Notes: generated from the letters alone by a model not told the origin. Numbered from the stretch's first letter, positions 431 through 33,711 are shown. The stretch: DNA of 64,000 nt from Thermoanaerobaculia bacterium (GCA_048500275.1 JASNYI010000001.1:484341-548340); one strand, 5' to 3'. Translations and numbers: made by a program.

Positions 431-458
431 GGGGTCAGGTCTTGATTTTATATTATAG
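431..458 (+). repeat. AT-rich 28-bp intergenic repeat, copy 1 (GGGGTCAGGTCTTGATTTTATATTATAG)
   Basis: It matches 24500-24527 almost exactly and matches the reverse complement of 30156-30183 and 33684-33711. It lies 16 bp downstream of the peptidase stop and abuts the GNAT start codon. Local GC is far below the roughly 70% genome background. Confidence 0.8.
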
Positions 459-473
459 CGGGCGCCGCGCCCG

Positions 474-2897
474 TCAATTCTTCTTCCCCTTCACCCAGGT
501 CTCGAGCCACTGGCCCGTCTCCCAGAGCATGTGGAGGATGTTCTCCCGCGCCGCGTAGCCGTGGCTCTCGTAGGGGAGGAGCACGAGGCGCGACCGGCCT
601 CCCAGGCCCTGGATCGCCTCGAAGAGGCGCTCGCTCTGGAGCGTGAAGGTCCCCGGGTTGTTGTCCGCCTCGCCGTGGATCATCAGCAGCGGTTCGTTGA
701 TGCGGTCGGCGTAGTCGAACGGCGACACGCGCGAGTAGGTCTCCCGGGCCTGCCAGTAGGTCCTCTCCTCGGCCTGGAAGCCGAAAGGGGTGAGGGAACG
801 GTTGTAGGCCCCCGACCGGGCGATCCCCGCGGCGAAGAGGTCCGAGTGGGCGAGGAGGTTGGCGGTCATGAACGCCCCGTAGGAATGCCCCGTGGCCGCG
901 CACCGCTTCGGGTCGACGATCCCCTCGGCGTCGAGGGCGTCGATCGCCGCCTTCGCGTTCGCGACGAGCTGCTCCACGAAGGTGTCGTTGGGTTCCCTGC
1001 TCCCCTCGCCGACGATCGGGAACTGCGCGTTCTGGAGCACGGCGTACCCGAGCAGCGTCCAGAAGACGGGCGAGCCCCAGGACGGCCGGACGAAGGCGTG
1101 CGGCGACGAGTCGACCATGCCCGCGGCCGACTTGTCCTTGTACTCGGTCGGGTACGCCTCGAGGAGGAGAGGCAGGCGGCCGTCCTTTGCGGCGTCGTAG
1201 CCGGGGGGGAGGTGCAGGTCGCCCGCGAGGTCGACCCCGTCGGCCCGCTTGTAGCGGACCTTGCGCGTCTGGACCGCCTCGAGAGCCTTGAAGGGGTTCT
1301 CGAACGACGTGACCGGCCGCGGTGCGATACGGGCCTTCACGTTGCGCACCTGGAAGTTCGGGAACTGCTTCGACCCCTCGACCCGCGTCAGGAGGACTCC
1401 GCGCTCGGCGTCGAGGACGCGGACGATCCGCTCGTACGTGGAGACCCCGTCCGCGCGCCAGAGGCGCGTCGTCTTCCCGGTGGCGATCTCCCAGGTATCG
1501 AGGAACGGGCGGTTCCCCTCCGGCGAGTAGCCCTCGCCCGCGAGCCAGAGCCGCTTGCCGTCGCGGCTGCGCTTGAGCACCTCTCGGCCCCGTGCGTCCG
1601 GACCCGTGACGAAGCCGCCCGGCTGGGCGTAGAGGTTCTCGGTCGACAGGTCGAACAGCACCTTCGGCTCGGCGTCGCCGGCCGCGGCGTTCGCGAGGTA
1701 GGTCTTCTGGTTGCGGTCCTTCCAGCGGAAGTCCGAGATCACGGCCATCCCGCCCTCGCCCCAGGTGACGTCCTGGAAGCGGTTGCGGGTCTTCGCGAAG
1801 GGTTTCGGGCTGCCGTCGAACGGGGCCTCCAGCAGGAACAGCCGATCGCGGAACGGGACGTCTCTCGCGGGGTCGCCGCCGTCCTCGGCCTCGGCGAAGA
1901 AGAGGGTCGCCGGGGCGTCGTCGCGCCAGTCGAAGCGCCTGCGGCCCGCTTCCGTCGAGTCGAACGCGACCGGGATCGCGTCCTGCACGGGCTTCTCGAC
2001 GAGCGTCGCGACGCTCTTCCCCGCGGCGTCGAAGACCTCGGTCCGGTAGGCGAACCGGCTGACCGGGAAGCGGTACGAGAAGGGCGGCAGGACCGTCGTC
2101 ACGAGGAGGAAGCTCCCGTCGGGGGACGGGCGCACGGCGCGGCGGATCGCGGGAGGGAGGACGGCCTTGCTCGTCCCGTCGAGCGCGAAGCGGCGGACCT
2201 CCGTCGTCGCGTAGTGGGAGAAGGTCCGCTCGTCGGCCTCGTTCTTCAGGAGATCCTGGTACGTCCGCGCGGGGGCCTTGCGGCCGGTCGCTTCCTTGAC
2301 GACGGGGCCCGTGGGGAGGACGACCGGCGGCACGAAGGGCCCGAGCGAGGGACGGACGTGGACGAGGAGACCCGATTCGTCAGGGAGCCACTGGTACGGG
2401 AAGTCGAGGACGGCCGAGACGCTCGGCGGCGTGACCTTCGAGGCCCGCGCCGCCGCGAGGTCGACGACCCAGACCGAGAGCCCGTCCGGGTCGCACTGGA
2501 CGAACGAGTAGTAGGTCCCCTTCGGCGAGAAGCGGGTCCACTGGATCTTCGGCGTCGCCGGCAATCCCTCGACCGCGACGCGCTTTCCGGACGCGATCTC
2601 CTGGACGGCGATCCCCGTCGTGAGGTTGACCCGTGCGCGATTGTGGTTCTTCGGGTTGATTCGCAGCCCCGCGAGCCTCAGCTCGGGCTCGGAGAGCTCC
2701 TCCAGCGACTTGTAGCCCGGGAGGTCGAGAAGAACGAGGCGGGTCCCCGCCGGGTCCACGACGACGGCCGGCGGCAGCGGTGCGTCGACGAGCTTGCGGA
2801 TCTCCTCCGGCGGCGTGCGGAACGGGACGTTCTCCTGGGCCGTGGCGGCGAGGGAGGCGACGACGAGGAGGATCAGGACGAGGCAGCGGCGCAGCAT
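474..2897 (-). CDS. S9 family serine peptidase (prolyl oligopeptidase / dipeptidyl-peptidase-like), secreted
   Basis: The C-terminal 807 aa of ORF 474..4844(-) start at MLRRCLVLILLVVASLAATAQ, a signal peptide. The catalytic serine lies in ATGHSYGAFM, with downstream MIHGEADNNP and LPYESHGYAARENILH (Asp/His). An N-terminal beta-propeller-like region is present. The upstream part of the long ORF is R/G/P-rich junk. Confidence 0.85.
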   Translation of the reverse strand: MLRRCLVLILLVVASLAATAQENVPFRTPPEEIRKLVDAPLPPAVVVDPAGTRLVLLDLPGYKSLEELSEPELRLAGLRINPKNHNRARVNLTTGIAVQEIASGKRVAVEGLPATPKIQWTRFSPKGTYYSFVQCDPDGLSVWVVDLAAARASKVTPPSVSAVLDFPYQWLPDESGLLVHVRPSLGPFVPPVVLPTGPVVKEATGRKAPARTYQDLLKNEADERTFSHYATTEVRRFALDGTSKAVLPPAIRRAVRPSPDGSFLLVTTVLPPFSYRFPVSRFAYRTEVFDAAGKSVATLVEKPVQDAIPVAFDSTEAGRRRFDWRDDAPATLFFAEAEDGGDPARDVPFRDRLFLLEAPFDGSPKPFAKTRNRFQDVTWGEGGMAVISDFRWKDRNQKTYLANAAAGDAEPKVLFDLSTENLYAQPGGFVTGPDARGREVLKRSRDGKRLWLAGEGYSPEGNRPFLDTWEIATGKTTRLWRADGVSTYERIVRVLDAERGVLLTRVEGSKQFPNFQVRNVKARIAPRPVTSFENPFKALEAVQTRKVRYKRADGVDLAGDLHLPPGYDAAKDGRLPLLLEAYPTEYKDKSAAGMVDSSPHAFVRPSWGSPVFWTLLGYAVLQNAQFPIVGEGSREPNDTFVEQLVANAKAAIDALDAEGIVDPKRCAATGHSYGAFMTANLLAHSDLFAAGIARSGAYNRSLTPFGFQAEERTYWQARETYSRVSPFDYADRINEPLLMIHGEADNNPGTFTLQSERLFEAIQGLGGRSRLVLLPYESHGYAARENILHMLWETGQWLETWVKGKKN

Positions 2898-2971
2898 GAC
2901 CGGGAGGCTACCGCATCCCGGCCCCGCGGTCGGGCGCGGCGGGGACCGCCGCACCGATCCCGCCGCGTCCC

Positions 2972-32802: not shown

Positions 32803-33656
32803 CGCGGCTCGTCCTGACCGCCGACGACGCGGGCCTCGCCGGCCCCCTCTCGCGCCGCATCGCCTCTCTCCTCGCCTCCGGCCGGCTCACGGCGACGAGC
32901 CTCCTCCCGTGCGGTAAGGCCTTCGACGTCGCGGTCGCGGCGCTCCGCGCCGCGGGCGTCGCCGAGGCCGGCGTCCACCTCTGCGCGGTCGGCGGCGAGA
33001 CGCCGCTCTCTCCGGCGTCGGCCGTCCCTACGATGGCTCCCGGCGGCCGGTTCCCGCGCGCCTGGCCCGCGGTCGCGGCGCGCGCCGCGTCGTTCCGCCT
33101 TCGCGCCGCGGAGGTCGAGAGGGAGTGGGAGGCGCAGGTCGCCGCCGTCCGCGAGGCCGGGCTGCGGGTGACGCACCTCGACTCGCACCAGCACCTGCAC
33201 CTCCTGCCGGCGCTCCTGCCGGTCGCCCTGTCCCTCGCGCGCCGCTTCGACGTGCCGTTCGTAAGGGCGCCGCGCGGCGACGACCCTGCGGCCGTCGGCG
33301 TTCCTGCGAGCGCGGCGGCCAGGGCGAGGGCGCGGCTCCTGTCCCTCTTTGGCGCCGCAGCCCGCCGCCGCGTCGCTGCCGCGGGCCTGCCGGAGCCACC
33401 GCGCGTCCTCGGCCTCGCCGAGGCCGGAGGCATGACGCTCCCGCGCTGGACGGCCCTCCTCGAGGGGCTGCCTGGAGAAGGGACGTTCGAGGTCGTCCTC
33501 CACCCGGGAGCGGACGACCCCGCGGCCGCCGCCCGCTACCCCTGGGGATACGGGTGGGAAGCCGAATCCCGGGCGCTCGAAAGCGAAGAGCTCGCTGTGC
33601 TCCTCGCGCGGCATGGCGTCGAGACCGCCCCCTTTTCCCTCGTCGCGAGAGGCTGA
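32799..33656 (+). CDS. YdjC/ChbG family carbohydrate deacetylase-like protein
   Basis: The LVLTADDAGL N-terminus and the HLDSHQHLHLLP metal-binding motif are characteristic of YdjC-family deacetylases (HpnK, NaxD and LgmC are members). The GTG start overlaps the GT2 stop (GTGA). Confidence 0.7.
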   Translation: MTRLVLTADDAGLAGPLSRRIASLLASGRLTATSLLPCGKAFDVAVAALRAAGVAEAGVHLCAVGGETPLSPASAVPTMAPGGRFPRAWPAVAARAASFRLRAAEVEREWEAQVAAVREAGLRVTHLDSHQHLHLLPALLPVALSLARRFDVPFVRAPRGDDPAAVGVPASAAARARARLLSLFGAAARRRVAAAGLPEPPRVLGLAEAGGMTLPRWTALLEGLPGEGTFEVVLHPGADDPAAAARYPWGYGWEAESRALESEELAVLLARHGVETAPFSLVARG

Positions 33657-33683
33657 GGCTCCCCGCTCCGACGGGGCCGTCCG

Positions 33684-33711
33684 CCAGAATAGAAAATCAA
33701 GACCTGACCCC
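33684..33711 (-). repeat. AT-rich 28-bp repeat, copy 4 (plus strand CCAGAATAGAAAATCAAGACCTGACCCC)
   Basis: It is identical to copy 3 over a 32-mer (…CCAGAATAGAAAATCAAGACCTGACCCCATCC). It overlaps the 3' end of the osmC-like gene and supplies DGVRS plus the stop codon. It lies 28 bp after the ydjC-like stop. Confidence 0.8.

Follow-up and report, generated by a model that had tools for sequence, protein, structure and literature searches.

AT-rich repeats at gene ends in a Thermoanaerobaculia genome are probably solo terminal inverted repeats of TIRtrons

A 64,000-nt stretch of DNA from a Thermoanaerobaculia bacterium (GCA_048500275.1, JASNYI010000001.1:484341-548340; hereafter the window) contains four short, AT-rich repeats close to the ends of genes. 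We conclude that these are, with high probability, single ('solo') copies of the terminal inverted repeats (TIRs) of a TIRtron, a mobile unit with a gene for an IS200-like tyrosine transposase (TIRYT); that such TIRs have been moved in trans as dimers, with the singles as by-products, we infer. Three things are directly observed: the sequence identity of the repeats with the TIRs of genes for Y1 transposases that possess a helix-turn-helix (HTH) domain, the organisation of the family as singles and dimers, and the gene context of the copies. Because the repeats are TIR copies of a mobile element, they represent a small selfish-DNA repeat family and not a new regulatory signal. The original prediction, made from the window alone, held that the repeat matches no class that can be named; this was wrong, as the repeat fits the TIR repeats of TIRtrons and TIRYT genes (PMC6006769; PMC3733652).

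What defines the family? Its 24-mer core, searched at up to one mismatch, has four matches in the window, two in one orientation (431-454 and 24500-24523, +) and two in the other (30160-30183 and 33688-33711, -), just as predicted, and no match in 100 dinucleotide shuffles of the window. We read the repeat from its inner to its outer end, as ...TAG-AAAATCAAGACCTGACCCC, so that copies 1 and 2 lie on the minus strand and copies 3 and 4 on the plus strand (Table 1). The conserved unit is 29 nt long and consists of an inner part, GCyAnAnTAG, followed by the 19-mer AAAATCAAGACCTGACCCC, which is identical in all four units; the outer end of each copy is GGGGTCAG. The predicted identity of copies 3 and 4 over 32 nt was recovered (CCAGAATAGAAAATCAAGACCTGACCCCATCC), and in a repeat search of the window the similarity among copies runs out at 32-36 nt. 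Because it stops there, the copies are not pieces of a bigger duplication, a possibility that the original prediction had raised. Relaxed searches of the window yielded no further degenerate copies. The contrast in composition also stands, although the core is at about 40% GC, where less than 40% had been claimed, within a window of 65-76% and a genome of 73% GC. As foreseen, the four units do not fold (minimum free energy as DNA between -0.2 and -1.2 kcal/mol, z -0.5 to +0.5), and all are single arms with no partner inside 120 nt. The suggested comparison with Rfam gave no match in the window at gathering thresholds, and nothing relevant in 20 loci from other genomes; a tRNA search found none in the window and two unrelated tRNAs in the 20 loci. 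A literature search with the exact repeat sequence, in its DNA and RNA forms, returned no papers.

Table 1. Repeat units of the window and features that overlap them.
Feature	Position	Strand	Description
TIR unit copy 1	431..459	-	GCTATAATAT-AAAATCAAGACCTGACCCC on the - strand; interval from S9 peptidase stop to GNAT start
TIR unit copy 2	24500..24528	-	TCTATAATAG-AAAATCAAGACCTGACCCC on the - strand; interval from DmsC stop to next - strand gene
TIR unit copy 3	30155..30183	+	GCCAGAATAG-AAAATCAAGACCTGACCCC; convergent genes on either side
TIR unit copy 4	33683..33711	+	GCCAGAATAG-AAAATCAAGACCTGACCCC; YdjC and OsmC genes converge on it
Stop codon (TGA) of methyltransferase ORF	30169..30171	-	inside copy 3; final codons ...G V R S * come from the repeat
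Stop codon (TGA) of OsmC ORF	33697..33699	-	inside copy 4; protein end EFVWPEGDGVRS*
Only sigma-70-like match involving a copy	450..477	-	TTGACG in the flank, over the S9 peptidase stop; spacer of 16 nt; TAATAT within copy 1; GNAT gene lies downstream; consensus match only

In other genomes the same repeat bounds transposase genes. Protein comparison, including tblastn, placed it 27 nt upstream of the ATG of a Y1_Tnp gene in three loci (L066 from Desulfovermiculus, L059 and L056), and the gene product beside the repeat matches Pfam Y1_Tnp with an E-value of 2.5e-10. Locus L059 holds a complete unit: a left TIR, GGGGTCAGGTCTTGATTTTTGAA, with 45 nt in all to the ATG; a protein of 291 aa, counted from the conserved MARPL start, with the motifs NHYH, FQ and YIVLNP; and a right TIR, ...CAATTCAAGACCTGACCCC, which encodes the C-terminus ...QFKT* of that protein. 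A metagenome scan provided two further complete two-TIR units (L109, L110). The left repeat of these three units has a TTGATT -35-like hexamer, with a -10-like hexamer 16-17 nt further on, before the transposase start; a -35/-10 pair in the left end ahead of the transposase is the usual layout of an insertion sequence (IS). Protein-coding readings of the repeat (MGSGLDF..., ...KIKT*) are genuine in some TIRYT genes, at their 3' end, and nowhere else.

Since these loci had been found via the repeat itself, we ran a look-up that started from the protein. Five homologues were chosen by protein similarity alone: P0115, P0069, P0036 and P0096, which are 58-61% identical to the L059 protein, and P0019, listed without an identity value. 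Each of the five has GGGGTCAGGTCTTGA.../...CAAGACCTGACCCC on its flanks, in one case with shortened ends (one G fewer at the left, GGGTCAGG, and one C fewer at the right). No target-site duplication was seen at any of the five, nor at the dimers or full elements inspected. Every inspected Y1/HUH transposase gene of one subfamily is thus flanked, in inverted orientation, by the outer 15 nt, and over its outer 15-19 nt the window repeat has the same sequence as the TIRs around such genes in several phyla. The precomputed domains of the homologues are Y1_Tnp together with a C-terminal HTH_23, HTH_38 or HTH_28, and many of the proteins are named RayT or transposase; the intact proteins inspected measure 281-300 aa. 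At least 8000 proteins were retrieved at E<=1e-20, and many gene-bearing database contigs are only 0.9-1.4 kb long, about the length of one element. The element is rare on plasmids (29 records, best identity 45%) and on viral contigs (4 stretches).

These properties agree with a published class of repeats. Di Nocera, De Gregorio and Rocco (2013) designated as 'TIRYT' those genes that resemble RAYT genes (for REP-associated tyrosine transposases, where REP stands for repetitive extragenic palindrome) and have flanking TIRs, and as 'TIRtrons' the resulting units; their paper gives the TIR consensus GGGGWSAS and reports TIR families as single, dimeric or grouped copies, Acidobacteria included (PMC3733652). 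The outer motif GGGGTCAG fits this consensus in 4/4 window copies. Likewise shared with that description are the fixed short distance of the TIRs from the RAYT-like gene, sometimes over its 3' end, the dispersal as single, dimeric and grouped copies, and the occurrence of the class in Acidobacteria; and in other genomes the repeat flanks the TIRYT gene in inverted orientation (L059, L109, L110 and 5/5 look-ups). The window differs in having single units only, without a TIRYT gene. Two further differences concern the repeat itself: one TIR of 15-19 nt spans more than ten phyla, which the parts of PMC3733652 that we read do not state, and the Holophagales-type inner part GCyAnAnTAG is lineage-specific.

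Quentin et al. (2018) placed most TIRYTs in TnpA-Y1 subclass 2.1, characterised by a HuH motif NH[YF]H, FQ, Y[IV]HLNP and a C-terminal HTH, and listed this subclass as Bertels' RAYT group 1 (PMC6006769). According to Bertels et al. (2017), group 1 is the most widespread and most IS-like RAYT group, and its flanking 16-mers are moderately repeated (PMC5581495). The TIR-flanked proteins studied here have the Y1_Tnp core, the HuH motif NHYH, FQ, YIVLNP and the C-terminal HTH (compare Table 1 of PMC6006769), along with a very wide taxonomic spread. Unlike in the published picture, where no REP-like structures were noted near subclass 2.1 genes and the TIRYT link was left for confirmation (PMC6006769), the link to TIRs held in every protein-chosen case that we checked.

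How widely is the repeat distributed? A scan for exact matches to the 19-mer covered one genome per species, and the matches listed come from more than 106 loci in more than ten phyla; because the loci were gathered by exact match, the apparent invariance of the 19-mer across genomes is partly a matter of ascertainment. The original prediction had called for a search of related genomes, and both related and unrelated ones carry the repeat: Acidobacteriota (Holophagales, Thermoanaerobaculia, Aminicenantes), Elusimicrobiota, Aerophobetes, Desulfobacterota, Thermotogota, Synergistota, Firmicutes (Clostridia/Peptococcaceae), Gammaproteobacteria (including the isolate Rheinheimera baltica), WOR-3 and Gemmatimonadota (Gemmatimonadaceae). 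In aligned copies the outer part is invariant and the inner part differs by lineage, being GCyAnAnTAG in GC-rich Acidobacteriota and kTCA in low-GC phyla. Among 148 copies (loci and window), 39 have an inverted partner at up to two mismatches, mostly 25 nt apart, and 103 have none. In Holophagales and Thermoanaerobaculia relatives, head-to-head dimers form perfect palindromes or hairpins of 63-64 nt, which fold as single-stranded DNA with -36 to -37 kcal/mol (z -14 to -16); singles of the 29-30-nt unit occur there too. Tandem groups of the unit are found in L064, L056 and L116.

Could the singles be inert debris, that is, random deletion remnants of decayed full-length TIRtrons that were never copied as short units? 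No transposase gene lies close by, the singles fail to fold, and internally deleted, repeat-bounded derivatives of the Desulfovermiculus gene do exist (L066 3205-3400, L051 3672-3980). Random deletion should nevertheless leave ragged ends, whereas all four window copies and about 100 in relatives share the same inner end: in 104 GC-rich copies, conservation falls sharply to background past position -10. Moreover, the units are near-identical in unrelated flanks, dimers of exactly two units are common, and no TIRYT coding remnants lie beside any Acidobacterial copy. We therefore regard debris as highly improbable.

The original prediction had also proposed a dispersed element resembling REPs or MITEs (miniature inverted-repeat transposable elements). 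A dispersed, non-coding derivative of a mobile element is what we find, but neither name applies to the window copies. MITEs have two TIRs around a short non-coding core and a target-site duplication, and the window copies are single arms; the internally deleted copies of L051 and L066, outside the window, are MITE-like. REP/REPIN-RAYT systems, reportedly described by Nunvar (2010), Bertels and Rainey (2011) and Ton-Hoang (2012), are closer. There, as here, short intergenic repeats are linked to a Y1 transposase gene, which they flank in inverted orientation; hairpin dimers exist alongside singles, and gene 3' ends are preferred. A canonical RAYT (subclasses 2.2/2.5; Bertels groups 2/3) that mobilises a classical REP/REPIN family would accordingly account for a short, intergenic, multi-copy repeat with singles and inverted dimers. 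It would also suit the GTAG of many GC-rich copies (..TAGTAG, ..AAGTAG), and the best NCBIfam model for the L066-type product is indeed REP-associated tyrosine transposase. That match, however, scores 74 bits and thus lies below the cutoff of 80. The single unit is no palindrome, whereas a REP is an imperfect palindrome of 20-40 nt, and the proteins, with 281-300 aa, HTH tails and NHYH/FQ, have the features of subclass 2.1 (not 2.2, 2.4 or 2.5), for which PMC6006769 found no REPs. REPs are, in addition, species-specific, unlike a TIR conserved across phyla. A classical REP origin is, in our judgement, next to negligible in probability. IS200/IS605 elements share a Y1/HUH transposase and the lack of target-site duplication, but have subterminal hairpins and no terminal inverted repeats, whereas the element described here has perfect TIRs of 20-25 bp and an extra HTH domain.

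The gene context of the window copies was derived from ORF (open reading frame) lists, analysis of GC at third codon positions (GC3) and Pfam. Copy 1 begins 14 nt past the stop codon of the S9 peptidase gene (474-476), and its outer CCCC end touches the ATG of the GNAT gene (430-428), both genes being on the minus strand. Copy 2 begins 35 nt past the DmsC stop (24564-24566), and the minus-strand gene beyond it encodes an outer membrane beta-barrel (OMP)/CarboxypepD_reg protein. Copy 3 follows the stop (30070-30072) of a plus-strand Pyr_redox_2 gene after 82 nt, and copy 4 the YdjC stop (33654-33656) after 26 nt. The predicted proximity to gene 3' ends is hence borne out, and copies 3 and 4 even contain the stop codons of the converging genes. 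An 'fprA-like' gene named in the original prediction was not reproduced; the ORF at 30911-32068 has only a weak Pfam match to Mannosyl_trans2.

Might the repeat be a portable promoter or leader, which brings an outward -10 hexamer (TATAAT/TATAGT/CAGAAT) together with a conserved leader and owes its retention to driving the genes behind it? The original prediction had offered this reading on the strength of a perfect TATAAT, which is indeed present in copies 1 and 2, aimed at the next gene, but is replaced by CAGAAT in copies 3 and 4. Copy 1 places TTGACG-16-TAATAT ahead of the GNAT ATG; some copies elsewhere lie just upstream of plausible starts (L023, L030, L044, L047); and in the 104 GC-rich copies, conservation reaches 79-90% at A2, A4 and T6 of the inner hexamer (TAnAnT), with positions 3 and 5 variable. 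Yet a -10 with a -35 at 16-18 nt, directed towards a gene start, was found as a consensus match at copy 1 only, with no promoter match at copies 2, 3 and 4, and copies 3 and 4 are directed into the 3' ends of the genes that converge on them. The kTCA found as inner part in low-GC phyla is not -10-like, and start codons immediately behind CCCC show no enrichment (6/149). The 68 single copies in GC-rich relatives were tallied on rough GC3-based gene calls: 31 lie between convergent and 11 between divergent genes, 14 are tandem and co-oriented, and 12 tandem and anti-oriented. The position at gene ends is thus seen beyond the window as well, and an orientation bias is not (14 vs 12). Because the copies lie mostly between convergent genes and without such bias, a general promoter role is unsupported, and the split indicates tolerated insertions at gene ends rather than promoters. 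We consider a promoter or leader module decidedly unlikely, while individual copies, such as copy 1, may on their sequence have been co-opted as promoters.

How would solo TIRs arise from a TIRtron? The full element is an IS-like unit of about 0.9-1 kb, in which a left TIR, GGGGTCAGGTCTTGA..., and a right TIR, ...TCAAGACCTGACCCC, enclose the gene for a Y1/HUH transposase with a C-terminal helix-turn-helix, and the TIR would be the site that this transposase recognises and processes. REP and IS200 ends fold in single-stranded DNA. The dimers, foldable in that form, would be non-autonomous and depend on a TIRYT from another part of the genome to move them in trans, and the non-folding singles of the window would be halves or one-ended products of dimer mobilisation; they are probably immobile now. 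Copies would accumulate in intergenic DNA at gene 3' ends because insertions are tolerated there. Effects on neighbouring genes would be incidental: two copies supply the stop codon of a neighbour, and one may supply a -10 hexamer. For this lineage we only infer mobilisation in trans, since no TIRYT homologue is present in the window or in the Acidobacterial loci; the cognate TIRYT would be flanked by GGGGTCAGGTCTTGATTTTCTA.../...TAGAAAATCAAGACCTGACCCC.

Several points weigh against solo TIRs of a TIRtron. The single units cannot fold, unlike known Y1 substrates, and by our reading of PMC3733652 and PMC6006769 no experiment has shown that TIRYTs move TIRs. No TIRYT gene was detected in the 64-kb window or in about 70 Acidobacterial loci of 8 kb, either by tblastn or by a profile search of all six-frame ORFs. 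Nor did a metagenome scan and two protein searches bring up a TIRYT attributable to Acidobacteriota: the pattern scan of metagenomes for an Acidobacterial TIRYT returned only elements of 40-45% GC, and the protein search with a GC-rich query returned Binatia, Methylomirabilales, Nitrospiraceae and Deltaproteobacteria. The constancy of the 19-mer across genomes is, as said, partly ascertainment. Finally, a transposon leaves the retained A2, A4 and T6 of the -10-like TAnAnT unaccounted for. We also considered that the 29-nt singles are not dead halves: a Y1 transposase that accepts a non-hairpin substrate might copy them directly, or the host might retain them, either as outward -10 elements, given that TAnAnT keeps these positions across Holophagales and Thermoanaerobaculia, or as gene-end donors. 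We hold this to be unlikely. If it were true, the many TIR units of Holophagales-type genomes, with no transposase nearby, would amount to a vertically inherited system that resembles REPINs but relies on another transposase subclass.

Two window segments align to loci of Holophagales metagenome-assembled genomes (MAGs) at 80-85% nucleotide identity, and the OsmC gene is orthologous in the window and one such locus (L024; 85% nucleotide identity). A single unit lies behind OsmC in both, but in opposite orientation and at a different position, which may reflect two independent insertions or an ancestral dimer that lost different arms in each lineage. An empty-site comparison of window 41380-41720 with L041 failed, the intergenic DNA being too diverged for alignment. 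The repeat has remodelled the ends of the methyltransferase and OsmC genes: the window OsmC protein ends in EFVWPEGDGVRS where the L024 orthologue ends in EFRWPG, and the window tail is six residues longer. Both window ORFs terminate in ...GVRS* within the repeat (30169-30183 and 33697-33711). Annotators should be aware that the last codons and stops of some genes, here those of OsmC and the methyltransferase, derive from the repeat.

Solo TIRs of a TIRtron would account for a repeat whose AT-richness stands out at a genomic GC content of 73%, with no need for a new regulatory signal, and would tie it to the very large family of TIRYT/subclass 2.1 Y1 transposases. To our knowledge, there has been no experimental study of this family so far. 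The kind of element is known already, if little studied. To the published picture we add the single TIR of 15-19 nt common to elements of more than ten phyla, and the many single and hairpin-dimer copies in Holophagales and Thermoanaerobaculia; nothing else in the data was less expected than this constancy across phyla and the large number of units in Holophagales-type genomes.

Other observations concern the repeat in further genomes. At an orthologous site in five Acidobacterial MAGs (L062, L068, L070, L078 and L022; four Holophagales, one Thermoanaerobaculia), a single unit occupies the same position, and the TAG of its inner part is the stop codon of the preceding gene. Its outer 19-mer is intact and its inner 10 nt vary (GCCAGAATAG, CTTAAAGTAG, CGTAAAGTAG, TTCGTACCAG), which suggests long residence; the site is not evidence of selection, because the loci were chosen for an exact 19-mer. 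A second, GC-richer arm, GGGGTCTGGTCTACGTTCTACACTCTGCG, pairs with the standard unit in Holophagales and Thermoanaerobaculia (L003 7040-7130, L021 1650-1720, L049, L064 1880-1990 and L081), was not present when searched for in the window, and may represent a sub-family that has diverged or the decayed remains of a partner arm.

Short tandem duplications of the TIR outer end together with 6-14 nt of flank, e.g. CTGACCCC-aagctcg-TGACCCC-aagctcg, occur at L021 1703-1760, L046 5295-5350, L056, L070, L092, L106, L004 2992-3060, L117 (upstream of 1501), L122 (downstream of 2361) and L124. A second GACCCC lies inside 30 nt in 15/148 copies, compared with 3/148 in a control interval, and in L117 the entire left TIR is duplicated with 12 nt of flank. 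These duplications may be footprints of transposition chemistry, and the recurrence of TGACCCC plus flank among them suggests that processing takes place close to that sequence. P0019 (L124 2001-3110), from a metagenome contig of 65% GC, is a TIRYT of 369 aa whose N-terminal catalytic half is internally duplicated, and repeated GGGGGTCAGG and TGACCCC fragments lie all around its TIRs.

Three other candidate associations of the repeat were rejected. When ORFs within 2.5 kb of copies were clustered to find a shared neighbour, nothing emerged beyond antisense artefacts and widespread families (Ser/Thr kinases, ABC ATPases). In L004 and L084, inverted copies lie 2.7 kb apart, but they bound no autonomous element; between them is an ordinary gene for a secreted protein of 842 aa. 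A GC-rich hairpin is not a constant companion of the inner end, as upstream and downstream 36-nt flanks have similar folding energy (Wilcoxon p = 0.17). GC skew in the window changes sign across about 8000-26000, with a cumulative peak at about 20 kb, and the repeat orientation switches between 24.5 and 30.2 kb, from copy 2 to copy 3. This proximity, probably a coincidence or a gene-strand effect, had raised the idea of a replication-terminus or polar site, which we dropped because the unit forms dimers of both orientations, spans many phyla and occurs as transposon ends.

Among the remaining genes of the window, two giant ones on the minus strand (2972-18364) resemble polyunsaturated-fatty-acid (Pfa-type) synthases. 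One encodes KS-AT-ACP(n)-KR-DH in 2174 aa, the other KS/KS-like-AT-2xFabA and an acyltransferase domain in 2954 aa, and a 294-nt repeat in tandem at 14206-14784 probably corresponds to a series of ACP domains. At 41690-43732 (minus strand), a GroEL gene (Cpn60_TCP1) adjoins a same-strand ORF of 131 codons, a putative GroES by position only; GC content in the window is at its lowest (65%) where this pair lies.

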